From a virus (taxonomy: Duplodnaviria; Caudoviricetes), in the IMG/VR virus record IMGVR_UViG_3300006169_000009, positions 42,056 to 106,055 of that record: 64,000 nucleotides of DNA; one strand, written 5' to 3'. Below, one piece after another: positions 1,834 through 59,248 of this stretch (position 1 is the first letter of the stretch; each line of letters starts with the position of its first letter). The notes beneath the pieces are model-generated. The model was not told the DNA's origin. It saw nothing but the letters and a program-made list of their open reading frames with translations, and did not search any database. The position numbers were made by a program, and so were the translations under genes.

Positions 1834-2595
1834 CTACCGTCTTACCGGCTTCAGCAGATTCTGCAACTCTCCGACACTTCGCTGACGAGGGATGTCTCCG
1901 AATAGACGATGTGCGTGGTATGCCTCTACGTCGGTGGGGTCCTCAGTCTCCTCAACATGCTGACCGACCGTACGGCCAGAGAATAGATCCATCTGGTTCT
2001 TGTGTACTTCCGGCTGGGTTACTTCCTTCTTCCCGAAGGCGGCGTCCCAACTCTGGTTGAGGTACTTCTCGTGCTCAGGAGTCCCGTACCGAGGTTCTAC
2101 TGGGTCGTCGTTCCGAGGATGGTTGACGTCCTCTGCACCCGCACTGACGTGCTTGAACTGATTCCAGTTGACCGGAGGAAGCGTCCCCTGGCGACCCGGC
2201 ATGACATCGATCCGTCCGGTCGCCTTGAACGCCGGAGCGACCCACTCCCGTAGATCGTCGTGATGTTCAGGGTTATGAGACGGAGACGCTGGGTGATAGT
2301 GACCTGGCTTCATCGCAGGGTTGGGGTCTACCTGGAGCACATGAGCACGACCCGGAGGCTTATCCGCGTAGCCTGCCTTCACCGCGCTGTCCTTCATCAC
2401 GTGGGCCTGCTTGGCGAACTTCCAGGCGATGTTCTCACTCTCCGAAGCGTGGGCGACCTTCATGGCGTTCTGACCTTCGGAGGGACCCCTGCCCCAGACA
2501 CTATTGCCGGTCTTCTCCGCAGGCAAGACCCTGCCGCCCTCGGCCATGATGTCGTGTGTGGTCCCGTGAAAGAAGGAGCCCCTACGTCCTTCCAT
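1834..2595 (-). CDS. Arr-like ADP-ribosyltransferase-fold protein
   Basis: FFHGT...GGRVLPA...AWKFA...RAHVLQVDP pattern resembles Arr; clear paralogue of 51427..52089. Confidence 0.55.
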   Translation of the reverse strand: MEGRRGSFFHGTTHDIMAEGGRVLPAEKTGNSVWGRGPSEGQNAMKVAHASESENIAWKFAKQAHVMKDSAVKAGYADKPPGRAHVLQVDPNPAMKPGHYHPASPSHNPEHHDDLREWVAPAFKATGRIDVMPGRQGTLPPVNWNQFKHVSAGAEDVNHPRNDDPVEPRYGTPEHEKYLNQSWDAAFGKKEVTQPEVHKNQMDLFSGRTVGQHVEETEDPTDVEAYHAHRLFGDIPRQRSVGELQNLLKPVRR

Positions 2596-3199: not shown

Positions 3200-3616
3200 T
3201 CAGTCCTCGACTTCTGCCGGGTTCCGACGCTCGTAGCGCGCACCGGTCGGGTTCGGACGGCCTCGGTTGACCTGCTCGTACTTCAGCGCGGCGAAGTCGT
3301 TGTTGGAGCCGTGACCGAACTCACCGAGATAGGTTGGAGCCTCGACCCAGGCGGCGGAGCCGACGTGGGCGCGCTCGCGCATGGTCTCCTCGGGGTACTT
3401 CTCGTACACGTTGCGGTTGTGGTTGGGACGGCCCGGCGCAGGCACGTAGCCCTGCATGACGCCCTTGGTGAACTCGTCGGGGACGTCGGTGTCGGTCGCG
3501 ATCCCCTCTTCGAAGCGCAGCGGGCCACGCCGGGAGTTGTTCTGCCCGAACTTCTCCTCGTAGACGTTCCCGACCTGCTCAGGGAACTGAGGGTTCGGGG
3601 CGAGGTTGTCAGCCAT
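3200..3616 (-). CDS. Conserved phage protein, probable virion component
   Basis: Start re-assigned to MADNLAPNPQF (AGGAAGG upstream); GPLRFEEGIATDTDVP motif; near the portal. Confidence 0.7.
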   Translation of the reverse strand: MADNLAPNPQFPEQVGNVYEEKFGQNNSRRGPLRFEEGIATDTDVPDEFTKGVMQGYVPAPGRPNHNRNVYEKYPEETMRERAHVGSAAWVEAPTYLGEFGHGSNNDFAALKYEQVNRGRPNPTGARYERRNPAEVED

Positions 3617-3669: not shown

Positions 3670-6600
3670 TCAGGTTACGGGATGCCACACTCCGTCCTTC
3701 AGTACCCGAAGTTGCACGACCTTGCGGCGCTTGCCGTTGATGACTACGAACGGTCGCGCAGCGTGACGTACGCCGTCCATGAACACGGCCAGAATCTCTC
3801 CGACCGTCAGAGTGTTGACGTTCCAGCGGACGTCTAGGTTCCGGGCCAACTCCTGCTCGATGTGCCACATGAGGTCGGCATCGGCCAGGACCAGTCGTAC
3901 AGCATCCCAGCCGAACTCGATCTCCCGGTTCTGGACCTGACGGGTGTTCCAGGCGGCGTTCAATACAAGCGCCACAGCCTGAAGTGTGTGCCAAGAAAGG
4001 TACAGATCGTTCTCGGCTCGCTGCTGGCTCTCCCAGCCTGCCGCAAGATCCCGTAGCAGCCGCTCACGGACGTCCCAAGACAGGTCCGTCTCCTTAGCAG
4101 CCCAGCCGATCGTGTTCCACAAGGCCTCCAGGCTCAGGCCGACCAGTTCGAGGCCCTCGGTGTTCCACAGCAGTTCGGCATCCGAAGCCTGCCGCTGCAG
4201 CGCCTGCCAGGCCGCCTCCACCTCGGTCCCGGCCAACTCGTTCGAGGACCAGACCTGATCCAGGCTCTTCCCGACCTTCTCCTGGATCTCCCAGGAAGTG
4301 ATCAGTGCAGCCGCCAGTGCCGTACGGGAGTCCCACAGCAGGATGGAGTCGGCGCTGATGTTGGCCTCGATGTTCCACTCGATCACGCTCTGTGACTGGG
4401 CTACCTCCTGCGCGGCCCACAGCAGTTCAACCGCCTGCGAGGCCAGCGCGGAGACGTTCCACAGCGACTCGTAGTCCTGGCTGATGATGTCGAGCACGCC
4501 CCACTGAGCCGCAAGATCGGACAGAGTCTGGGCCAGCAGGTTCCAGACCAGGCTCACGTCCTGGTCGACAGCCTCCAGGACGTTCCAGAACAGGTCCACG
4601 CCAGCGGCCACCGATGCGATGTTCTGGACGTTCCACTCCAGGCCGACATCGTTACCCAATCTGAGAACGACATCCCACAGTGCGCTCAGTCCGTTACCGA
4701 CCGTAGCGTAGGCGTCCCAGCGCAGGTCACTGGTCTGGTTGATTGCAGCCCGTACGTCCCACGGAGTAGCCAGGGGGTTGTTGACCGCATTCAGCGCATC
4801 CCAGGATCCGGCGAAGTCCCGGCTGATCAGGCCCAGGGCGTTCCAGATAGCCGCTGAGTCTGCTGCCGCCAGAGCCTGGTCGTTCCACACCAGCGCAGAG
4901 TCTGCATTCTGCATAGCGAGCGCGTTCCAAATTGCCTGGTTGCTCAGCCCGGCCACGGCGTAGTCGTGCCAGATCGCCTGGTGGTCGGAGTTGACCGGCA
5001 CGCTGACGTTCCACAGTGCCTGCACTACCTGACTTGCGGCTGCGTAGACCTCCCACAGCGCCTGGCTGCTCTGCCCGACCAAGGCCGAAACGTTCCACAA
5101 CTTCTGGTTGCTCTGTCCGACCGAGACCAACGTGTCCCACACGTACTGGCTGCTTTGGTTGACCACAGTCGAGATGTTCCACAGAGCCTGGTTACTCTGG
5201 GTCACTAGACTGTTGAGGTTCCACAGAGCCTGGTTGCTCTGGTTGACTGCCGCGTAGACGTCCCAGACCTCCTGGACGTCAGCGTTGACCAGGCTTTGGA
5301 CGTTCCACTTCGCCTGGCTGGTCTTGCCTACCGACTCCGGGATCTCAGCAGCAGTGACCACCACGTTGCGGAACTGGGTCCGGGTACCGGCTGCGCCGAA
5401 CCAGACGTAGCCTCCTCGCCCCTGAGCCGTGTGCGTGGACGTGACGTTGGTGCCCAGCGTGAGGTTGTCCAGCCGGATCGAGGAGCCGGTCACGGTGATG
5501 CGGAACGTGTACCACGTGTCCAGCGTGAGTGTGCCTACGGTCGCCCAGGCGTCCACGACAGGGTCGGTGCCGTCTCCAGCCATAGCCCGGACCTGGAGGT
5601 TTCCGTTGCGCCGGAAGACACACGAGTAGCCCTGCCAGGTCGGGTTGCCGTCCGCGCCTCCGGCGAACCCGACCGTGTCCTCGTCCGCGAACGCGACCGT
5701 GAAGTTGGCGACCGCCGAGAATGACTCGACCATCTTGGCCTCGAAGTCCAGCGTCCAGGTGTCGTGGAAGGCACTGCCTCCGATGGGAGACATCCAACCC
5801 TGAAGGATCGCGGACTCCACCGAGGCCACGCCGATCTCGTTGTCGATCCCCCAGCCGTCCGGGGCGGTGAACTCACCGACCGTCGATCCGCCGTTGATCT
5901 GCCCACCGCTGTAGTACCCGTGGAACCACTCCTGGTCGGCGTACGGGTCAGCGGTCAGCCTGGCCTTGCCCGAGACGTAGGGAGCATCATCGGTGATGAT
6001 CCCGTCCGCGCCCATCTCCCTGGCCGCGTCCGCACTGGTCTTGTCGTTGATCGTCCACATCCACACCTCGATGCCTGCGGCATGCATGGAGTCGACGTAG
6101 GACTGGTCGACGGTGCCGAACTGAACGTTCTCCTGCACTGCCCCATCGGCAATCGGCACAGACGGGTTCGTACCCTGCGGGTCGCGATTCGCCAGCGGAT
6201 ACCCAGCCGTACGACAGGCGTCCTGGTAGGACTTGGTGAACGCTGGGATGATGACGTTGTCCTTGATCTGGACGTACTGGTCCAACAGATCGGGCAGCGC
6301 ATCTCCTGCCGCCTGGCTCTTAGGCTCAATGGACAGCAGAACCTGATCGGCGTAGAGAGTGAGTACTTCCTCCAACTTCGCCATCCGGTACACGCCCTGG
6401 TATCCGGGGTTGAGCAGGGCAGCAGGCTTGTACTGCAGTGCGTCCAGGGCTGCGTCCGTGGACGTGGCGATGGTCAGGTTCGATGTCATCAACGTGCCGG
6501 TCGTAGCGTTGTGGTGGCAGTACAGGGTGCCGTCGGCAGAGAGGTGGACGTCCATCTCCAGGCAGTTCGTGGTGCCGTCGGCCATGCAGGCGGCCATGGC

Positions 6601-7389
6601 CTCCAGCGTCTCGTCCGGGTACAGCAGGGCTCCCGAACGGTGGTTGCTCCACCACGTGCCGGTGTGGGTGTCCCGTAGGTTGACCGGGCCGCCTTCTGCG
6701 GTCCCCGGCTTGATCTCTACGGCCCAGGTCAACTTTCGCGAGGACTGCGTACAGTTGGCGTTGACTACCTGCTGACCGTCAAGGCGGTACTGGGTGAAGA
6801 ACTGCGAGGACGGCGTTCCGGTAGAGATGATCGCGCCAGGCATGGTGTAGCCAGAGCCCGCGCTAGGCGTGACCGAGGTCGTGTTGACCGAATGGAACCC
6901 CGCCGTGGCGTTGCCGGATCCGATGGCGTTGGTCAGCGTGACACCGAACGGGTCAACGGTCTGGTCACTGCTTTCAGCCTGGACGACAGCGCCAGAGCCG
7001 TTGGTCCCGCTAGTGTCGGCGTTCTCCCACTGCATTACCGACCAACCACAGATCATCTGCACCGCAGAGTGCGTGAAGGTCAGCGCCCCGGCAGTCGGAG
7101 AGGCTCCCATGGCTCGGAACAGTGTTAGGCAGATGTTGCCGTTGGCCGACATCTGAGAGCCGATCTTCTCCCAGGTCAGCCCGCAGCCGGTCATGGTGTC
7201 CGTAGGTGCTGCTGTACCGGAGGTACCTCCGGTCTCCACACCGACCAGAATCAGCGCGTTGGCCGCTGGCGTGATGCTCGCAGTGCTGTGGGAGGCCTGG
7301 TCCGCCGTAGACCAGTCCTGCGTCAGTAGTGTGGGGACGAGTGTTAGCGGCCCAGACGGCGGAGCCTTCAGCAGGGTGAGTAGCGACAT
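3670..7389 (-). CDS. Large virion fibre-like protein with glycerophosphodiester phosphodiesterase (GDPD) domain, beta-sandwich domains and C-terminal Trp repeats
   Basis: GDPD motifs HR..G..YPDET, LEMDVHLSADG..YCHH, IEPK, WTIN, GADGIITD; about 36 Trp-centred 14-aa repeats in the C-terminal 500 aa. Confidence 0.8.
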   Translation of the reverse strand: MSLLTLLKAPPSGPLTLVPTLLTQDWSTADQASHSTASITPAANALILVGVETGGTSGTAAPTDTMTGCGLTWEKIGSQMSANGNICLTLFRAMGASPTAGALTFTHSAVQMICGWSVMQWENADTSGTNGSGAVVQAESSDQTVDPFGVTLTNAIGSGNATAGFHSVNTTSVTPSAGSGYTMPGAIISTGTPSSQFFTQYRLDGQQVVNANCTQSSRKLTWAVEIKPGTAEGGPVNLRDTHTGTWWSNHRSGALLYPDETLEAMAACMADGTTNCLEMDVHLSADGTLYCHHNATTGTLMTSNLTIATSTDAALDALQYKPAALLNPGYQGVYRMAKLEEVLTLYADQVLLSIEPKSQAAGDALPDLLDQYVQIKDNVIIPAFTKSYQDACRTAGYPLANRDPQGTNPSVPIADGAVQENVQFGTVDQSYVDSMHAAGIEVWMWTINDKTSADAAREMGADGIITDDAPYVSGKARLTADPYADQEWFHGYYSGGQINGGSTVGEFTAPDGWGIDNEIGVASVESAILQGWMSPIGGSAFHDTWTLDFEAKMVESFSAVANFTVAFADEDTVGFAGGADGNPTWQGYSCVFRRNGNLQVRAMAGDGTDPVVDAWATVGTLTLDTWYTFRITVTGSSIRLDNLTLGTNVTSTHTAQGRGGYVWFGAAGTRTQFRNVVVTAAEIPESVGKTSQAKWNVQSLVNADVQEVWDVYAAVNQSNQALWNLNSLVTQSNQALWNISTVVNQSSQYVWDTLVSVGQSNQKLWNVSALVGQSSQALWEVYAAASQVVQALWNVSVPVNSDHQAIWHDYAVAGLSNQAIWNALAMQNADSALVWNDQALAAADSAAIWNALGLISRDFAGSWDALNAVNNPLATPWDVRAAINQTSDLRWDAYATVGNGLSALWDVVLRLGNDVGLEWNVQNIASVAAGVDLFWNVLEAVDQDVSLVWNLLAQTLSDLAAQWGVLDIISQDYESLWNVSALASQAVELLWAAQEVAQSQSVIEWNIEANISADSILLWDSRTALAAALITSWEIQEKVGKSLDQVWSSNELAGTEVEAAWQALQRQASDAELLWNTEGLELVGLSLEALWNTIGWAAKETDLSWDVRERLLRDLAAGWESQQRAENDLYLSWHTLQAVALVLNAAWNTRQVQNREIEFGWDAVRLVLADADLMWHIEQELARNLDVRWNVNTLTVGEILAVFMDGVRHAARPFVVINGKRRKVVQLRVLKDGVWHPVT
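3820..5320 (-). repeat. Coding tandem repeat, 14-aa (42-bp) period with invariant Trp
   Basis: e.g. QSNQALWNLNSLVT/QSNQALWNISTVVN; W-to-W spacing 14 with occasional 16. Confidence 0.9.
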
Positions 7390-47671: not shown

Positions 47672-47843
47672 TCCCGTAACCCTGGCAGTGGAGGCAGTCC
47701 GCACCGTCATCGTCCTGCCCGGATCCGTAGCACCGCTTGCAGTCGACTTCACGCCGGACGAACTCACCCTTCTCGGGGGCTCCATCGTCCGAACCGTTGT
47801 GAACGTCGTTCCAGGCCTCTTCGTGGCTGTACGAGTTACTCAC
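47658..47843 (-). CDS. Small DnaJ-type Zn-finger protein
   Basis: CKRCYGSG...CLHCQGYG. Confidence 0.6.
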   Translation of the reverse strand: MSNSYSHEEAWNDVHNGSDDGAPEKGEFVRREVDCKRCYGSGQDDDGADCLHCQGYGTNLV

Positions 47844-49308
47844 CGACTACATGCCCTTCTACGATGTCCTCGGCCATGGGGTCGGCCTCTACTGGTCCCG
47901 GCAGGGCCTGGGCTCGCTCGGAGGCTCCGGCACCGAACATGCGCGAGAGCATGCCGGGCTCACCTCCTCCGCCTGCAGGGCCACTGCCACGCCCTGTGAT
48001 CGAGATCGACCATCCCTCCTGCTCCATCTCGTGCTTGGCCTTCATCATCTTGTTCAGCCGGTCGATCTCGGTGGAGAGGTTCGGGTCGGCGTATCCGCCC
48101 TCCAGTTCTTCCGCAAACCGCATGAAGTAGACACGCTGGGTCTGCATCTCGATGAGCCCGTTGTGCATGTCGATGAAGTCCTGCTTGGTCCGAAGCGTGA
48201 CCGGGATGTTGTACGCACAGTTAGCATCTTCCTGGAACTCGGGGCACTTCGAGGACAGGAAGCAGGAGTTGCACATGCGCTGGGAGTCGCTGCGGATGTT
48301 GACCTTGTTGGTCTCGACAGTCTCTCCGTCGACCTCTTCCTCTGTCCTGGTGACCCCCAGGATCGGCAGCGTCTTGCTCGGCTCACGGGTATTTCGAGTT
48401 GCCAGGCTCTTCCGCGTTTCGTCCGAAGGGTTATCAACTGCCTCCCCCTCGGATTCCGCGTTCTCCGCTGTCAGCGAAACCTGGGGGTTAGCAACTCGAC
48501 CCTGTCGCTTTTCGATGTCTTCGACCAACTTGCCCCAACTCCACGCTGAGAGCCTCAGCACCTCGGTCGGGTCGTCGTTCTCGATCTTGACGTGGTCGAA
48601 CCCGTTGCGCTCGAACAGCGTGCGGTGCTGCTTACGGGCACGCTCCTTGTAGTCCTTGGGGTAGCGCTTCAACTCCCGGCCAGTCCAGATGATGGTGTCC
48701 CCATATCGCTGCGGAGAAAGCCACGAGGTGCTGCTCACGGAGTTCCACTTGATGGCCGACATCTCATCGACCTTAGTCATCGCTACGCCGTGCAGATGAC
48801 AATCGAGCGAATTGAGATGGGGTGCCAGATTACGCCCTCCGATAGCCGTAGCGAGAACACCGACGTTGAGATACTTCTCGGACAGTTCCCGAAGTGCATC
48901 GAGTCCCCACTCGGGATGCCACAGTGGCATGAACTTGTCTCGTGGCAGGTCATCGTAGAAGTCCTCTCGCTGGTTTTCGATCCACTCCCGGCCCAGGCTG
49001 AGGGCATCGAACTCAGTGACCATCTCGACAGTGTCGATGTTGGCGGCCACAAAGGTCTGGTAGGCGTCCGAGATCGCCAGCAGGTCGGCTTGGCTGTACT
49101 TGTCGTCCTCGTCCTTGTTCACGGTGTAGGCACCAGAGTCGATGAGGATGTTGGTTCCGTCAGGGAACTTCTCAGCGACCTTCCACCCAGCCGTGTTCTT
49201 GACACGCCGCTGCAGCCCGATGAACGACAGCGCCACATTGGTGACATCGATCTCGCGCAGCACCTTGCGATGGCTGGGGACCTCAGCCCCGGCGTAGTAC
49301 AGCCTCAC
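47836..49308 (-). CDS. tRNA-guanine transglycosylase (TGT)-like protein with C-terminal Cys-rich domain
   Basis: ILIDSGAYT, PLWH, HLHGVAMT and SVSSTSW motifs; CNSC....KCP.......C. Confidence 0.6.
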   Translation of the reverse strand: MRLYYAGAEVPSHRKVLREIDVTNVALSFIGLQRRVKNTAGWKVAEKFPDGTNILIDSGAYTVNKDEDDKYSQADLLAISDAYQTFVAANIDTVEMVTEFDALSLGREWIENQREDFYDDLPRDKFMPLWHPEWGLDALRELSEKYLNVGVLATAIGGRNLAPHLNSLDCHLHGVAMTKVDEMSAIKWNSVSSTSWLSPQRYGDTIIWTGRELKRYPKDYKERARKQHRTLFERNGFDHVKIENDDPTEVLRLSAWSWGKLVEDIEKRQGRVANPQVSLTAENAESEGEAVDNPSDETRKSLATRNTREPSKTLPILGVTRTEEEVDGETVETNKVNIRSDSQRMCNSCFLSSKCPEFQEDANCAYNIPVTLRTKQDFIDMHNGLIEMQTQRVYFMRFAEELEGGYADPNLSTEIDRLNKMMKAKHEMEQEGWSISITGRGSGPAGGGGEPGMLSRMFGAGASERAQALPGPVEADPMAEDIVEGHVVGE

Positions 49309-49796
49309 TCTGGCTCCTCGCTCAGGCGGTTGTCCCCGACCCGCAAGGCGGTCTGGTAGTCCACGGTGGCCCGCAACTGGTCCCAGGGCTTGGCTTCTCG
49401 CTCAGCGTCAGGGCGGAAGTCGGGGTGGCTGTACTGAGGGCTCAGGAACAGCAGCACCGGCACGCCCTGGTCCATGAGGTGTGCGGCGATCTCGGGGTCC
49501 GGCTCGACCACGAACTCTACGTTGGCTCCGATGGCTCGTACGCGTGCGATCTGAGCCAGCCTGCGCTCTGCCAGCGTGGCTCCCTCAGTGACCCGCAGTG
49601 GGTAGATGTCGGGGTCGGGGATGAGGTTGTTGGCCTTCAGGAACCACTCGTCGCGCTCCTTGTCTGTGGTACCCAGGATGGCCGTGCGAATGCCTGGGGA
49701 CACTGCGCGGAAGAGGGAGATCCCCTGACGGATGATCGTTTCGGTGTTCGGCTTGCGGATGACCCCGTCGAGCACGAACACACCGGTTGGACTCAT
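49305..49796 (-). CDS. HAD-like protein (degenerate motif I)
   Basis: VFVLDGVIR...EWFL...FVVEPDP; coupled to the TGT-like gene. Confidence 0.45.
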   Translation of the reverse strand: MSPTGVFVLDGVIRKPNTETIIRQGISLFRAVSPGIRTAILGTTDKERDEWFLKANNLIPDPDIYPLRVTEGATLAERRLAQIARVRAIGANVEFVVEPDPEIAAHLMDQGVPVLLFLSPQYSHPDFRPDAEREAKPWDQLRATVDYQTALRVGDNRLSEEPE

Positions 49797-49837
49797 GGCC
49801 CTATCCTAGAGCAGGGGCATGAAAGGTGTCTACGCCC

Positions 49838-50344
49838 ATGTTCGGTGACTTGTTCGGAGGCCTCCCCCTCCACCCGCTCGTTGTCCACGCTGTGGTGATC
49901 TTCCTCATCGCCGCAAGCCTGGGCGTGGTCGTGCTGGCTGTGCGTCCCTCTCTGCGCCATCGCTACGACTTCCTGCTCGGCCTGGTAGCCGTGGCCGGTG
50001 TGCTGTTCACCTGGCTGGCCGTGGAGAGCGGCAACGTGCTGACGCAAGTACCAGGACTGGGGCGTACGGCGCATGCCGAGGGTGGCACGCTGCTGTTCAT
50101 CATCACGATTCCGTGGGCTGTGCTGGTGCTGGCGATGGTCATCCTGGACCACTGGTGGATGGTCGACAAGAACAAGCACGGGACGCTCTACCGTAAGGCT
50201 CACCTGTCCCAGCCGTGGTGGCTCACTGCCATCTGTGTGCTGGCTGTGCTCGCCTCGGTGCTCGTGATGGTGCAGACCGGAATCGTGGGTCACAGCGGAG
50301 CCGTAGCATCGTGGGGAGATGTCAACGTAGCCCCGTACGAGTGA
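49838..50344 (+). CDS. DUF2231-like membrane protein
   Basis: GLPLHPLVVHAVV...H...GHSGAVASW; four TM segments. Confidence 0.8.
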   Translation: MFGDLFGGLPLHPLVVHAVVIFLIAASLGVVVLAVRPSLRHRYDFLLGLVAVAGVLFTWLAVESGNVLTQVPGLGRTAHAEGGTLLFIITIPWAVLVLAMVILDHWWMVDKNKHGTLYRKAHLSQPWWLTAICVLAVLASVLVMVQTGIVGHSGAVASWGDVNVAPYE

Positions 50345-50378: not shown

Positions 50379-50723
50379 TCACTCGTTTCCCCACCAGTTC
50401 ACGTCGAAGTGTGTGTCTCCTCGCTGCTTGGCCGCTGCCAGCCGGTGATGTCCCTCACCGATGTAGACCTTGCCTTCGTGTTCTACCAACTCAGGCCGCT
50501 CATCACCGTACATCGGCACACCCCCAGGAGCCTTGTAGCCTCCCGAAGCGTAGTCGTCCACCCGGTTCTTGAAGATGTTGCCTTGGCCGGTGTGCAGTTC
50601 AATGTCAGCAGAGACACTGCGCCGGGTTGGGGTGCCTCGGCGTGCGGCGTTGGCCTGTGAGTGTGCCTCGCTGGTAGTCAACTTCCAGCCGAACTGCAGC
50701 GGGCTCAGCAGGTTGCGGTTCAC
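50379..50723 (-). CDS. ParB/Srx-like domain protein
   Basis: PELVEHEGKVYIGEGHHRLAAA; N-terminus MNRNLLSPLQF. Confidence 0.7.
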   Translation of the reverse strand: MNRNLLSPLQFGWKLTTSEAHSQANAARRGTPTRRSVSADIELHTGQGNIFKNRVDDYASGGYKAPGGVPMYGDERPELVEHEGKVYIGEGHHRLAAAKQRGDTHFDVNWWGNE

Positions 50724-50733
50724 GCCCCTCGCC

Positions 50734-51276
50734 TCATGGCAGTTGGATGTGGTCACCGATATGGATCGTGTACGGCGGGTGCAAGCCGTTGATGCGGGCC
50801 AGGTTCTCCCAGGTCGTGTCGTTGAGCGCCGCGATCTTGCTCAGCGTGTCCCCCGAGACCACGACATGGGTCTTCGGAGGCGGAGGGAACAGTTCAGGCA
50901 GGTACGCCTTGAACGCCCCGTTGTTGAACGTCGACCAGGCGGTGAAGCCGTTGCCGAAGACCTCCTGGCGGTGCAGGAAGATCTCTCGGGCCGACTTGGC
51001 GGCGAAGTCGGGGTCGAGCAATCGGAAGGCGTCTCGGGTCTGACCGGTTCGGAAGTGCTCACGCAGCGAGCGGATCTGCCAGAAGCCGTAGGAGTAGCCC
51101 CACTTGTCGTTGGCCAGCGCCTGGTCGCCCACCATGTCGGCGTCTGCGAAGGTCTGGCCGTCCACCTCCACGGGGGCCTCGCAGAGCGCGAGCGCGCCCA
51201 TGATCTTGGCCTGGCGGGGTCCGAAACCGTTGACCCTGGCCAGCCGCTGTACCTGGAACTGGGTAAAGAGGTTCAT
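50734..51276 (-). CDS. Lysozyme-like domain plus LysM protein
   Basis: ALALCE...SYGFWQIR...FTAWST; LysM HVVVSGDTLSKIA...LARINGL. Confidence 0.8.
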   Translation of the reverse strand: MNLFTQFQVQRLARVNGFGPRQAKIMGALALCEAPVEVDGQTFADADMVGDQALANDKWGYSYGFWQIRSLREHFRTGQTRDAFRLLDPDFAAKSAREIFLHRQEVFGNGFTAWSTFNNGAFKAYLPELFPPPPKTHVVVSGDTLSKIAALNDTTWENLARINGLHPPYTIHIGDHIQLP

Positions 51277-51307
51277 GTGCCCAGTGTAGTGGCCCTGACA
51301 CCAAGAA

Positions 51308-51340
51308 GCCCCAGCCCCGGGAACTGGAGGCTGGGACTGC
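51308..51340. terminator. Intergenic hairpin
   Basis: cccagcc-N12-ggctggg. Confidence 0.45.
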
Positions 51341-51426
51341 TCGGAGATGGCGGATCACCCCCTCAGGTCAGGCTCGGAGCGGATATCTCGAATCCCCATC
51401 TTCACCTCCCCTGCGGGCGTGTGTCT

Positions 51427-52089
51427 CTAGGTTATCCTCCCGAAGCGGTTCTTCATGTGCTCCATGCCAGGCAGCATCGGGTCCTTGGTGCGCAAGGCTG
51501 CCAGCGGAGCACCTACCGCGTCTCCGCGCTCCATGGATCTAGCGAGATCCTCCTTGGCGGCCTGCCTGCGCATCTGCCCGTTCCAGTGGTCACCCTCGTG
51601 TGAGTACTTGTGCCCGAACTGCACGCTCAGGTTGGTCGGGTGGTTGGCGTCCTCGTTCTCCCGGAACAACCCTGTGTGCTGGACGTGGTTGTTCCAGTTG
51701 ACCTCGGGGAAGGTCCCCTGCCTTCCCGGCATGATGTCGTGGCGCTGGGCTACGTCGAAGTGAGGGGCCTTGACCTCGCCGGGGATGGACTTGTCGTGTC
51801 CCGGTGACTGCGCCTCGTTCTGGTGTACGGCGTACACACGGGCTCGCGGGTTCCAGTCGTGCTCGTTGGAGGTGTGAACCACTCTGTCGTGTGCGAAGTT
51901 CCATGCCCGCTCCTCGTCAGGCACTGCCCAGGCGTGCTTGTTCGCGGCCTCCCCACGACTCTGACCAGTGCTTCCCCAGTACGATCCCTTGCCGTGCTCC
52001 GAGGCAGGCAGCACCTTTCCTCCCTCCACATCCATGGCGGTGCCGTGGTAGAGGAACTGCTGGGAGTTCAGGTGGTCACTAGCGCTCAT
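51427..52089 (-). CDS. Arr-like ADP-ribosyltransferase-fold protein
   Basis: LYHGT...GGKVLPA...AWNFA...RARVYAV; N-terminus MSASDHLNSQQF. Confidence 0.6.
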   Translation of the reverse strand: MSASDHLNSQQFLYHGTAMDVEGGKVLPASEHGKGSYWGSTGQSRGEAANKHAWAVPDEERAWNFAHDRVVHTSNEHDWNPRARVYAVHQNEAQSPGHDKSIPGEVKAPHFDVAQRHDIMPGRQGTFPEVNWNNHVQHTGLFRENEDANHPTNLSVQFGHKYSHEGDHWNGQMRRQAAKEDLARSMERGDAVGAPLAALRTKDPMLPGMEHMKNRFGRIT

Positions 52090-52507
52090 GTCCCCAGCCT
52101 CCTTCCACCACGTTGGCCTGGAACTGACGGCCCTGCAGCATCGCCGCAGCAGCGCGATGATGGCCGCTTAGAAGCAGGTTTGTTCCATCATCCCTACGGT
52201 AAACCACAGGATGTTCGTTACCTGCGAGATGTTGGTCGGCATAGACCTTGCCCGGGTTCTCCATGTAGTGCTTGACCCCGGCTCGGGTGATCTGGCCCTG
52301 GGTGGCCTTCAGGTCCCGAGGATCCACGTCCTGCATGGATGGGCTCTTGATCGCGTCCAGCACCTTCTGCTTCTCGTAGTCGTGGCGCTTGGTGCTGCGC
52401 GTGGCCTGTCCCCAGGGGGTGCTCGTGGTTGGTGCCTCGTCCGGGAAGAGGATGTTGAGGTCGTGCTTCCCGTGCAGGTACTTGAACTGCGGGCCGAACC
52501 TATCCAT
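52079..52507 (-). CDS. ParB/Srx-like domain protein
   Basis: VDPRDLKATQ...PVVYR...LLSGHHRAAA; N-terminus MDRFGPQF. Confidence 0.7.
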   Translation of the reverse strand: MDRFGPQFKYLHGKHDLNILFPDEAPTTSTPWGQATRSTKRHDYEKQKVLDAIKSPSMQDVDPRDLKATQGQITRAGVKHYMENPGKVYADQHLAGNEHPVVYRRDDGTNLLLSGHHRAAAAMLQGRQFQANVVEGGWGHER

Positions 52508-52806
52508 CAGTCCTCCCGCAGATCGAACACAGGCTGCTGACCCTCGTGGACGGCGACGATGTTCTCTGGGGGAACGTGACCCATAACAAAGATCCCCTTG
52601 CCGGGGTGATTTCCGTGGACCTGATGCTGGATGTGCTCCTGGCCGACCTTCATCTCCAGCACGTGTGAACCGAAGCCCTCGGCGTCTTGGAAGCGCGAAG
52701 ATGTCATCCCTCGGGTGAGACCCTTCTCCTGGATCCCCGCGAGGTTTCGCTTCTGGGTGCCGTGGTACAGCGTGAACTGCGGTCCCAGGTGCTCAGTAGC
52801 GCTCAC
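52507..52806 (-). CDS. Minimal ART-fold (HGT-type) protein
   Basis: LYHGTQKRNLAGIQEKGL...VLEMKV...HVPPENI; N-terminus MSATEHLGPQF. Confidence 0.6.
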   Translation of the reverse strand: MSATEHLGPQFTLYHGTQKRNLAGIQEKGLTRGMTSSRFQDAEGFGSHVLEMKVGQEHIQHQVHGNHPGKGIFVMGHVPPENIVAVHEGQQPVFDLRED

Positions 52807-53192
52807 GTCATCCTCCTGATCTCCTTATGCGCCCGCAGGGTGGCGTCAGCATTCTCCTGGTACCGAACCGGAACCGGATCGATACCCAGTTCATGAGCCA
52901 CAATGGCACGGTGATGGCCGTCTTCAATGTAGAAGTGCGATCCTCTCTTACTCAGAAGCACTGACCCAGGAAACCCTTCAGACTTGACCTTGTTCTTCAA
53001 GTTGTCCAAGTACTGCGAGGCTCCTCCCGCATCACGATGTCGCTGATCGAACCCCGCTTCTCCCGACACCAATGACTTACGCAACCTTGGAACGCTGGCC
53101 TCATGCTCTCCACCACTGTGAAGACGCCGAAACTGTTCAAGAGGCATGCTCTCGTGCTTCCACTGTGCTCCCAGGTGCTCAGGTGCGCTCAC
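52803..53192 (-). CDS. ParB/Srx-like domain protein
   Basis: YIEDGHHRAIVAHELGIDPVPVR; N-terminus MSAPEHLGAQW. Confidence 0.7.
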   Translation of the reverse strand: MSAPEHLGAQWKHESMPLEQFRRLHSGGEHEASVPRLRKSLVSGEAGFDQRHRDAGGASQYLDNLKNKVKSEGFPGSVLLSKRGSHFYIEDGHHRAIVAHELGIDPVPVRYQENADATLRAHKEIRRMT

Positions 53193-53329: not shown

Positions 53330-54346
53330 TCAGTAGCCATACGGGCCTCCACGATGGACCAGGGCGGCCTGTCTCAGGGCCTCCGGGGCTCCCAGCAGGG
53401 GATGACCGTACAAGGCCGTCTCCGCCTGCTCACGGGCCGCTCCCTTGGCCTTGGCGATGCCTGCCAGGGCCTGGATAGTGCCGAAGCGCTTGTGCGCCTG
53501 CCACCTAAAGTTGTAGAAATCGCCATAACCCTGCCCAGAGGGTGCGAAGGCCTGCTTGCGGCCCAGGTGAATGTCATCGAACATGGTCTTGGCCTGGGTC
53601 GACAGCGCGTTGACCTTCGTCACAGCATTCAGCCAGCCCGGCGTACCCTCATTCGCCACGGAAAGGGCGTTGGCCGCAGAGTTGTATTCGTCCAAGATTC
53701 GCTGCGCACTCTGGCGCTCATTCGCCACGTAATCCCAGTACTCAGCCGGGTGAGATTCCTCTGGGTTCTCCCCGAGGATTGGTGGCCGAACCGTCCAGCC
53801 GTCGTGGGTGAGATCGTAGGCGGCGTAGGGCTTGATGTCGCGGATGTCGGTGCTGTGGGGGTTGACGTAGAACGTCACCTCGAAGGCTCCCGGCACCGGC
53901 TCAGCGTTGCTGGGGAACTTCACCGCTGCGGTCTGGGGCCACAGTTCGTCCTTGAACGCCCGGTTGAAGATGTCGGCCATGTCCTCCTCGCCCATGCCGA
54001 CGTAGTCCTGGTTGTACTTGAAGAACTTCGGGAAGTCGACCCCGATCAACACGTCCAGGTCGCCGTTGGACCGGTTGGCCGCCCACTGGTAGGAGATGCC
54101 AGAGCCCGCTACCCAGGCGGTAGACCACTTGCGTGGCTGATTGTAATGAGCACTCCAGTAACCATAAAGCGTGCTAAGGATCCACGTACGAACCGTTGGG
54201 CTGAACGAGGTGCCCTCGGTGAACAGGCGAGGGTCCAGGTGGCTCTCGGGATGGCTGAAGTAGCCGGAGCCGCCCTCCTGGGCTTCTACCGGCCCCAAAA
54301 CCTTCGCCGCCTGGTGCAGGAAGTAGTTGTAGCCCTCGGTCGCCAT
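53330..54346 (-). CDS. Pol-beta superfamily nucleotidyltransferase
   Basis: AGSGISYQW...GDLDVLIG (GS + DxD) and EVTFYVN; start re-assigned to MATEG. Confidence 0.75.
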   Translation of the reverse strand: MATEGYNYFLHQAAKVLGPVEAQEGGSGYFSHPESHLDPRLFTEGTSFSPTVRTWILSTLYGYWSAHYNQPRKWSTAWVAGSGISYQWAANRSNGDLDVLIGVDFPKFFKYNQDYVGMGEEDMADIFNRAFKDELWPQTAAVKFPSNAEPVPGAFEVTFYVNPHSTDIRDIKPYAAYDLTHDGWTVRPPILGENPEESHPAEYWDYVANERQSAQRILDEYNSAANALSVANEGTPGWLNAVTKVNALSTQAKTMFDDIHLGRKQAFAPSGQGYGDFYNFRWQAHKRFGTIQALAGIAKAKGAAREQAETALYGHPLLGAPEALRQAALVHRGGPYGY

Positions 54347-54511
54347 GTACTCAGGGTACCGGCTAGCGCCCTTGCTCCTCTGCCAGGTCCAGTCGACGGC
54401 GTACCTCAGCAGCCGCCTCGACGGCCTCCAGCGAGTCCGCGATGCGCTCCAAGGCATCCGCGATCCTGGCGGTGTCCTTCTGCCAGGGGGTGAGGTCAGG
54501 CAGGCCCAGAT

Positions 54512-57673: not shown

Positions 57674-59248
57674 CTACCCTCGTGCGCGCCGACGTCTTGC
57701 CGTGTACATGGCCTCGTGCTTGCGCAGATCCTTCTCCTGCTGGGCCGGAGTCATCTGCTGCTGAGACAGCGCAGGGTGGACGCCCTGGGGCTCACCGCCG
57801 ATGCGAGAGGATCCCGGAACGTGGGCTCCGAACAGCGCCTGCTGGCCCGGTGCGGGGGCCTGCCGTGCCTGGTGCTCAGCGTGCGCTTCGGTCTGCAGTT
57901 CCGACAGGCGCGGAGGGTGGTACTCGGACTCCTTGCCCGCCTTCCAGCGAGCCTGAGTCCAGCCGACCTCCTGGACAGCGGTGGGAGGAGTAGGCATGGA
58001 CTTGTCCTCAGTCAACTTCTTGGCCCCCACCTGGGTAGCCCGGTTGTTGAAGGCATGCAGCACGGCCTCGGGACCCGCGTACGGCTCATCGGGCTTCTTC
58101 TGGTTCTTGCTGGTCCGGTAGTTGTGGACCCCCTCGCCCACGCCCTTGGGCGGGTAGGAGACACGAGGAGTGGAGCCAGCGGTCTTGATGACGCTGGTGC
58201 GCCCACGCTCTCCAACCAGTTCGTTGGACTGCCCGTAGGAGATCGAGTTCTGCCAGGTGTCCTCGACAGTGTGGGCGTTCTCGTGCAGCAGCGGGTGGTT
58301 CTTGTTCTGCCCCGGATACAGGTCGAGCGCGCCCTGCTCGCCGGAGATCTTGCCAGACCGGATCATCGCGTTATGGCGCGTACGGGTCACATGCTCGACG
58401 TGAGCAGACGTGTTCGGCACCGCATTGCGAATCGTATGCGCGTACGACCACACCTTGGGGGCACCGTGAGGGTTGATAGCCTCGTCCGGGTGGACCTCCC
58501 CCATCAGCACCCGCTCGGCGCTGGTGATGTTCTGGTCGCGAGTACCACCTCGGGCGACCTCGTACAACTCCTTGTGGATGCCCTCAGAGCCCTTGACCTT
58601 GTCACGGAACGAGGGAGCGGACAGGTGGGCCACCGTCCCACGAGGCAACTGGTCAGCACGCACGGTCTGACCGACGTGATGACTGATGTCGACCTTGCCC
58701 TTGCTGGACGCCTTGACGTGCGCTGCGGTCTCGGGGGTGACGTGGACCGAGTGGTGACTGAACGTGTTCATCAGACCCTTGACGGCGGCCTTCTCGTTCT
58801 CCGGGCTGTTCTGCGGAGACATGACAGCAGAGGCGGTGATCGCACGGTCAGGGTCTACACCGTGCTGATGTCCCGCAGCCGCGATCTCACCGTGGTGCCG
58901 GTAGTACCAGCCGGTGCCAGAGGGGGTATCCCCTGGAGTCTCCTGCTCTGCCTCCTTGACGAGGTTCGCCCGACGGGTAGATGCGTGGGCCACTGTCACC
59001 GGCTTGTCAACGATGTGCTCCTGGACGGCTCCCAGAGCCTCGGCGGCCTTTCGTCCTGCGCTGCGGGTGGCAGGAGTCGAGCCGCTGACCGACTTCTCCT
59101 TCTCCCGCTGCTGTACCTCAGCGATGTTGGAGGAGAGGTTCAAGCCGGAGGCCCGCATGTTGGCGTCAAGCGCCTTGCGGCCACCGGTAGAGAGGTCGCT
59201 CCACTGAAGCGCACGGCCCTGAGGAGGCGTGTCGAACTCTCGCGCCAT
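57674..59248 (-). CDS. Large hypothetical protein with a WY...AVMSPQ helical domain (possible DNA-glycosylase-like fold)
   Basis: GWYY...ITASAVMSPQNSPENE, PKVWSY, VEDTW, AVQEVGW motifs. Confidence 0.5.
   Translation of the reverse strand: MAREFDTPPQGRALQWSDLSTGGRKALDANMRASGLNLSSNIAEVQQREKEKSVSGSTPATRSAGRKAAEALGAVQEHIVDKPVTVAHASTRRANLVKEAEQETPGDTPSGTGWYYRHHGEIAAAGHQHGVDPDRAITASAVMSPQNSPENEKAAVKGLMNTFSHHSVHVTPETAAHVKASSKGKVDISHHVGQTVRADQLPRGTVAHLSAPSFRDKVKGSEGIHKELYEVARGGTRDQNITSAERVLMGEVHPDEAINPHGAPKVWSYAHTIRNAVPNTSAHVEHVTRTRHNAMIRSGKISGEQGALDLYPGQNKNHPLLHENAHTVEDTWQNSISYGQSNELVGERGRTSVIKTAGSTPRVSYPPKGVGEGVHNYRTSKNQKKPDEPYAGPEAVLHAFNNRATQVGAKKLTEDKSMPTPPTAVQEVGWTQARWKAGKESEYHPPRLSELQTEAHAEHQARQAPAPGQQALFGAHVPGSSRIGGEPQGVHPALSQQQMTPAQQEKDLRKHEAMYTARRRRARG

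Follow-up and report, generated by a model that had tools for sequence, protein, structure and literature searches.

A shared N-terminal peptide on unrelated small enzymes of an actinobacterial myovirus, a candidate address for loading into the phage head

Phage T4 loads diverse internal proteins into the prohead by means of a capsid targeting sequence (CTS) alone, which is conserved (PMC3012670). Polyvalent proteins are predicted to be delivered with the virion (Iyer, Burroughs, Anand, de Souza and Aravind 2017, PMC5512222). In this study, a short N-terminal peptide (the tag) at the start of five small genes, A, B, C, D and F, was investigated in a virus genome from IMG/VR (IMGVR_UViG_3300006169_000009). 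By analogy, the T4 CTS is the closest known system. The source record is a genome of 106,055 bp rated 100% complete, and the window, the whole stretch of 64,000 nucleotides that was analysed, covers its bases 42056–106055. Positions are those of the window unless given as genome positions.

The genome has a G+C content of ~63%, and its minus strand carries nearly all genes. Its products include a large terminase, a portal of the SPP1 type, a coiled-coil scaffold, a capsid protein of the HK97 type and a tail sheath. The closest cultured kin are Streptomyces myoviruses of the BRock group, with a portal identity of 59% (PMC7453282). The phage (G000, 106 kb) was compared with a complete 107-kb relative (G001), a 108-kb relative (G002) and related contigs (L-numbers).

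N-terminal tag of the cassette genes

The tag was real, modular and confined to N-termini. The original prediction, made from the DNA alone, had described five genes beginning with a related peptide. All five were found where it had placed them, on the minus strand between 50379 and 53192 (Table 1), and their starts had the common form M-S-A-x-[DE]-H-L-[GSN]-(P)-x-Q-[FW]. The strict pattern [LF][GNS][APS]Q{1,2}[FW] occurred seven times in the six frames of the 106-kb genome, and four of these occurrences were the starts of genes A–D. For a looser core, L[GSNQT]x(1-2)Q[FW], four N-terminal matches were observed in this genome against 0.17 expected (P = 3e-5), and seven against 0.11 in G001 (P = 4e-11). 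The tag was thus commoner at N-termini than expected in both genomes.

Among 31 tags compared, Q was invariant and the final residue was F, with W in two. The Leu of the tag was encoded by CTG (13), CTC (14), CTT (2) and TTG (1); codons for Gly, Ser and Pro varied too. Since the residues were fixed while the codons varied, selection on the peptide, and not on DNA or mRNA, is shown at the level of these sequences. In a set of 12 ParB-like proteins including C and F (mean column identity 25%), M1, L7 and Q10 of the tag were as conserved as G92, H94 and R95 of the catalytic ParB/Srx G-x-H-R motif, which were invariant in all 12 sequences. The tag was predicted to be a disordered N-terminal extension and lay outside the confident fold in both models, those of A and D.

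The bodies behind the tag differed. Gene A is a ParB/Srx fold according to its AF2 model, in which the core had a pLDDT of 85–90 and residues 1–50 were below 52. Foldseek matched this model to Spo0J (1vz0), ParB (7bnk) and sulfiredoxin (6ky4), and a ParB-like PHROG match was also obtained (E 1.3e-4). Gene D is, on the evidence of its model, an Arr-like ADP-ribosyltransferase (ART). Foldseek placed Arr first (9iaf and 2hw2, probability 1.00, E ~5e-4), followed by Tpt1 and cholera-type ARTs. Residues 1–12 of the D model were coil, with a pLDDT below 50 for residues 1–6, and the strand was formed by residues 13–17. The first-strand motif of ARTs, H-G-[ST], was present in D as H15, G16 and T17, which were invariant across homologues. 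Sequence searches of the PDB with A, C and the D family gave no match.

Genes C and F can be described as ParB/Srx-like from their common GHHR motif and weak BLAST links to A, and C was linked to F by BLAST (E 1.7e-5). The longest open reading frame (ORF) of gene F starts at 50756; the public protein collection records the start at 50723 (P0052). The NRNL..QF variant of the tag in F recurs in P0120 and P0159. The ART label of gene B comes from the LYHGT strand and from weak profile matches over residues 6–33 (PHROG RNA 2'-phosphotransferase, E 0.003; Pfam, E ~0.09), which point to a putative mini ART-like protein shorter than Arr. The sole homologue of B, P0030, was 70% identical and carried the tag with another spacing, MSADEHLSPSQF, in which LSPSQF stands instead of LGPQF. 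The LYHGT strand began within one residue after QF in both ARTs, as had been noted earlier, with T between them in B and no residue in D.

Homologues of D also keep a C-terminal D-x-x-LPGM followed by basic residues (~51460–51480 in D). A 306-aa baseplate-hub-like protein adjoining the tape-measure gene ends in LFPGM (genome 34005–34019).

Genes A–D overlap or abut, the GTG start of B overlapping the TGA stop of A, and therefore look like one translationally coupled operon. The ribosome-binding site (RBS) and tag of A and B were ~85% identical at the DNA level. A 150-nt gap with a weak hairpin lies between D and E, and E–F may be separate from the A–D operon. Gene E, which starts MNLFTQF, was considered as a sixth tagged gene. 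It was rejected as a member because its orthologues begin NLLTQxQV, and the conserved QF is absent from them.

Table 1. Coordinates of the cassette genes, their tags and associated features in the window
Feature	Position	Strand	Description
Inserted island	49797–53329		Genes A–F and a plus-strand membrane-protein ORF (49826–50344)
Gene A	52803–53192	-	129 aa; GTG start; tag MSAPEHLGAQW, ~45-aa low-confidence linker, modelled ParB/Srx domain (DGHHR)
Tag codons of A	53160–53192	-	11 codons
Gene B	52507–52806	-	99 aa; GTG start; tag MSATEHLGPQF, then T-LYHGT; mini ART-like (putative)
Tag codons of B	52774–52806	-	
Gene C	52079–52507	-	142 aa; short tag MDRFGPQF (Phe for Leu); ParB/Srx-like domain (SGHHR)
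Tag codons of C	52484–52507	-	8 codons
Gene D	51427–52089	-	220 aa; tag MSASDHLNSQQF, followed directly by strand LYHGT; Arr-like ADP-ribosyltransferase (from model)
Tag codons of D	52054–52089	-	12 codons
Terminator-like hairpin	51309–51329	-	Between D and E; weak (1 site found vs 2.7 expected in shuffles)
Gene E	50734–51276	-	180 aa; SLT_3 lysozyme-like and LysM (Pfam); inside the cassette, untagged
Gene F	50379–50723	-	114 aa; GTG at 50723; tag MNRNLLSPLQF; ParB/Srx-like domain (EGHHR)
Tag codons of F	50691–50723	-	
Gene G	1834–2595	-	253 aa; paralogue of D (40% identity) lacking the tag; start MEGRRGSFFHGTT; lies immediately upstream of the portal gene (SPP1-type; 103–1824)

Range of proteins carrying the tag

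Eight related contigs contained 31 tagged genes, and three further ones were found in L167 and L168. The number of tagged genes was at least seven in tandem in L006/L007, seven in G001, three each in G002, L138, L104 and L168, two in L094, and one each in L018 and L167. In the related contigs, genes that begin alike but differ in their bodies stood in runs. Each tagged protein was a single-domain protein of 53–258 aa. When the first 16 residues were removed, the proteins clustered into ParB/Srx-like (11), GNAT (7, Pfam Acetyltransf_1) and ART (6, including two untagged paralogues), with 10 singletons (nine tagged genes and the untagged gene E). Judged by these clusters, proteins of at least four unrelated kinds begin with the tag, namely ParB/Srx-like proteins, Arr-like ARTs, GNATs and several orphans. 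The idea of a modular label on unrelated folds is strongly supported by these different bodies in relatives, together with the fixed Leu and Gln.

The tag was also kept in homologues outside this set. In a database search, all 27 homologues of D (27/27) started M-x(0-4)-L-[NG]-x-x-Q-F-LYHGT. A ParB-like profile was searched against 1.84 billion cluster representatives, which gave 3,515 proteins at E ≤ 1e-3, and the best 150 of these were examined. Among them, 57 were small (≤ 200 aa), and the strict tag stood at the start of 46 of the 57 (50% clustering). The other 93 were large (up to 5,005 aa), and none of the 93 had the tag at its start. The top matches of the profile were internal domains of proteins of 1,000–5,000 aa. 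The large proteins examined also carried Arr-ms, NUDIX, 2H phosphoesterase, ParB_N or DUF7178 domains. Their internal ParB domains had the same HPNVDHYR or SGDY start as the small proteins, without L..QF in front. So the tag appears, in the sequences compared, to be present exactly where covalent attachment is absent. Distant cellular relatives of the ARTs, from Saccharibacteria metagenome-assembled genomes, had other N-terminal extensions and no tag.

DUF7178 occurs in P0042, a 1,649-aa ParB-containing protein of the polyvalent type. A 524-aa protein of the window (57674–59248, minus strand) also gave a weak DUF7178 match.

The statement that the tag had not been described before stands as far as checked. 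The 50,697 records of cultured phages contained no DNA or protein match to the cassette, D, B or two tagged ParB-like proteins, and no description of the tag was found in the literature searched. Single-protein locus searches of IMG/VR gave no match. When DNA patterns of the tag were searched in IMG/VR, two specific patterns returned three loci each; a loose pattern gave mostly chance hits among the matches listed.

A family of 138-aa proteins has a tag-like N-terminus, [LI]APxPxFPE, and an invariant PLRFEEGxxTDTD, with no Pfam or PHROG match. Its gene lies at 3200–3616 (genome 45255–45671, minus strand) and is conserved between terminase and portal throughout the relatives, BRock (gp155) among them. 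This PLRFEEG family was rejected as tagged; its Gln is not conserved.

Two other genes of the window were recorded, both on the minus strand. A DpdA/queuine tRNA-ribosyltransferase-like protein (47836–49308; PHROG 887, E 6.5e-67) lies downstream of the island, separated from it by one 163-aa gene, and suggests that the phage DNA carries 7-deazaguanine modifications. A 1,239-aa tail-protein-like gene (3670–7389) has a glycerophosphodiester phosphodiesterase (GDPD) domain and may encode a tail enzyme degrading teichoic acid.

Destination of the tagged proteins

The destination that we infer for the tagged enzymes is the interior of the head, where the tag would dock them to a receptor for packaging and delivery with the DNA. 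We give this reading somewhat less than an even chance. In the mechanism proposed, a lineage of ~106-kb Streptomyces-type myoviruses would equip small effector enzymes that stand alone with M-[ST]-A-x-[DE]-[HN]-L-[GSN]-(P)-x-Q-F. The tag would be a short linear motif on a flexible leader, and thus a transferable N-terminal address. Its cargo would comprise ParB/Srx-like NTPases or nucleases, Arr-like and mini ARTs, GNAT acetyltransferases and orphans. The tag would dock non-covalently to an interior part of the assembling head, such as the portal, scaffold or capsid protein, and the docked enzymes would be packaged and then enter the host together with the DNA. For single-domain proteins, the tag would serve as covalent fusion serves polyvalent and MuF-fused effectors. 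More tentatively, it may be a protease-independent head-docking peptide with which ~11 codons suffice for shipping. The small enzymes would then be a 'polyvalent protein in pieces', acting as an injected arsenal.

The positions of tagged genes in relatives bear on this reading. In L104 tagged genes lie directly after the portal gene and also after the capsid gene. L138 has tagged genes near and before as well as directly after the portal gene, plus after the capsid gene. A tagged gene lies directly before the portal gene in G002 and between terminase and portal in L094, and in L168 and L018 tagged genes lie 0.7–1.7 kb upstream of the terminase. About 12 of the 28 tagged genes with known context were near head or packaging genes, and the block from terminase to capsid is ~1/10 of the genome. 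In published surveys, ARTs are enriched in myoviruses, and packaging contexts account for ~44% of them (PMC9503650). In the genomes compared, an untagged or degenerate-tag ART paralogue was always adjacent to the portal gene. Such a paralogue of the type of gene G was found beside the portal in L003, L004, L009 and L138 as well, in the first three immediately upstream of it, and its counterpart in L138 starts MRNLQRKQFHGT. Gene G is likely a head-associated ART. It has a C-terminal extension of ~60 aa.

Several points weigh against loading into the head. The counts of head-gene synteny given above are small and not independent. The cassette of this phage lies ~39 kb from the terminase and head genes, just downstream of endolysin-like genes, and the tagged genes of this phage, G001 and L167 are outside the head module. 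The portal-adjacent ART of this phage, gene G, has no tag. BRock shares the head genes yet has no tagged gene, and no receptor stood out among the genes present in all tag-bearing genomes but missing from BRock. The packaging claim of the original prediction is plausible but circumstantial. The neighbourhood of portal, capsid and terminase genes in relatives and the polyvalent-type domain set support it, and the distance of the phage's own cassette from the head module counts against it.

The island that holds the cassette is flanked by a conserved 375-aa gene (53330–54457) and a 163-aa gene (49305–49796). These flanks are adjacent to each other in G001 and in Streptomyces phage BRock, and one tagged gene occupies the site in L167. 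In L167 the gene upstream of the tagged one also carries, at its 3' end, a DHLGPQF-coding stretch (1660–1728), with a stop after 10 codons. It looks like a tag-only relic of cassette exchange or deletion.

Candidates for the receptor were examined by presence and absence in G000, G001 and G002 versus BRock. The comparison gave only a WhiB-like protein and a 158-aa protein of poor conservation, and neither was convincing; the 158-aa candidate lies in a block otherwise conserved in BRock too. The capsid protein was conserved from residue 1, and the scaffold is a separate 299-aa coiled-coil protein. Co-folding of the capsid protein, the scaffold and gene B (one job, own alignments) gave a score of 0.00, which speaks neither for nor against binding. 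Inside the capsid protein, residues ~88–95 (genome 40900–40940, just upstream of the window start) belong to an invariant segment resembling the tag, NxLTA[ST]QF-SITVAEQGYAVAV. Mimicry of this LTA[ST]QF motif by the tag was rejected because the tag-less BRock has the motif too, and the likeness is probably a coincidence.

Processing of the tag by a prohead protease, which the original prediction had offered beside packaging, was not supported. Searches of the genome for Peptidase_S78 and ClpP gave no match, and a search for MuF (PF04233, SPP1 gp7-like), in which the controls matched as they should, gave none either. An S77 search gave no signal in any control genome and hence was uninformative. 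The tag ends in Q-F or Q-W, which is not a known protease site, and the residue after it is variable. With no S78, ClpP-type or MuF domain found and a variable residue after F, protease processing is without support. The tag is probably retained and not clipped, because no prohead protease was detectable.

Docking to a partner outside the virion is a rather unlikely explanation. The partner would be a hub of the host, such as a chaperone or the machinery for transcription, translation or replication, or else a hub or immunity protein encoded by the phage, and the modifying enzymes would be brought to one site or complex in the infected cell after ordinary expression. Such docking suits the cassettes of this phage, G001 and L167: they are not part of the structural module but of a variable island, as is typical of host-takeover or anti-defence genes. 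It also suits the shape of the tag, a short linear motif with two hydrophobic anchors and an invariant Gln on a disordered leader, and the lack of the tag in the ART likeliest to be packaged, gene G. However, docking outside the virion leaves the repeated insertion beside portal, capsid and terminase genes of relatives unexplained. Nor does it account for the loss of the tag when the ParB subfamily lies inside giant polyvalent-type proteins. To our knowledge, the tag matches none of the bacterial clamp-binding (QL[SD]LF), SSB-tail and ClpX N-motif consensus sequences, which counts against docking of this type.

A regulatory N-terminal signal was also considered and is improbable. The peptide would then limit the lifetime or activity of potentially toxic enzymes, as a degron or as a signal for processing or timing, or would be a conserved context for translation initiation. 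The cargo domains (ART, GNAT and ParB-like nuclease or NTPase) are typical toxin folds. The genes are translationally coupled, and the likeness of A and B over the RBS and first 11 codons would fit an initiation context. However, the residues stay fixed from contig to contig whereas their codons vary freely, which indicates selection on the peptide and not on the mRNA. No protease partner was detectable in the phage, and the cellular homologues, which would face the same problem of toxicity, lack the tag.

It is very improbable that the peptide is functionless and the shared 5' end is a recombination junction for swapping effector bodies, as in polymorphic-toxin cassettes. The hypervariable number and content of the cassettes, the identity in DNA that A and B share at their starts and the DHLGPQF relic in L167 agree with such swapping. 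On the other side, 33 bases with frequent synonymous differences would be a poor substrate for homologous recombination. The residues L, Q and F were invariant across at least 46 clusters (50% identity), and both spacings were kept in frame at the exact N-terminus, a sign of selection on the peptide.

Ordinary paralogy, in which the N-terminus would belong to each catalytic domain, gains from QF abutting the first strand in the ARTs and from Arr carrying GPFYHGT at the place matching QF-LYHGT, but it is effectively refuted, since the same peptide stands on orphan folds as well as on ParB/Srx and GNAT, falls beyond the confident fold in the models of A and D and is missing from cellular ART and polyvalent-type ParB homologues.

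Significance and comparison with known systems

If loading into the virion is true, short modular capsid addresses would have evolved independently of the T4 CTS, in a lineage without a detectable maturation protease, and the tag would be the first such signal outside T4-like and giant phages. It would account for the delivery of single-domain ART, GNAT and ParB-like effectors by actinophages without MuF or polyvalent fusions. It would give a rule for finding injected effectors in metagenomes, where at least 46 ParB-like clusters and several other families carry the tag. It would also offer a handle for loading foreign cargo into the capsids of Streptomyces phages and other actinophages. If the partner is a host hub instead, the tag would still be a new and experimentally tractable viral short linear motif.

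The tag resembles the T4 CTS of IPI-III and Alt in that a short N-terminal peptide is the sole common feature of unrelated small proteins, an ART included. It differs in its end, which is L-x(2-3)-Q-F and not the Glu-terminated gp21 site (hydrophobic-x-Glu), and in probably not being clipped, given the lack of a detected prohead protease. The lineage, too, is unrelated to T4: the phage is an actinobacterial myovirus whose portal is SPP1-type and whose coiled-coil scaffold is a separate protein, and its tagged proteins are putative cargo. A retained tag would be closer to an encapsulin cargo-loading peptide than to the T4 CTS. The likeness to encapsulin peptides is one of concept, a short, retained, disordered terminal peptide that docks cargo inside an HK97-fold shell with no proteolysis. 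Encapsulin peptides are usually C-terminal, with a GSL-type motif. Unlike these, the tag is N-terminal, and its binding to the capsid is hypothetical.

Unlike polyvalent and MuF-fused effectors, the tagged proteins are separate proteins of 100–250 aa, with no MuF domain and no multidomain polypeptide. The domain set is nevertheless like that of polyvalent and MuF- or portal-fused effectors, with ART, ParB/Srx and GNAT, to which the large homologues add NUDIX and 2H. The ParB-like domain found here is closest to domains embedded in multidomain proteins of 1,000–5,000 aa, which is the architecture type of polyvalent proteins (PMC5512222).

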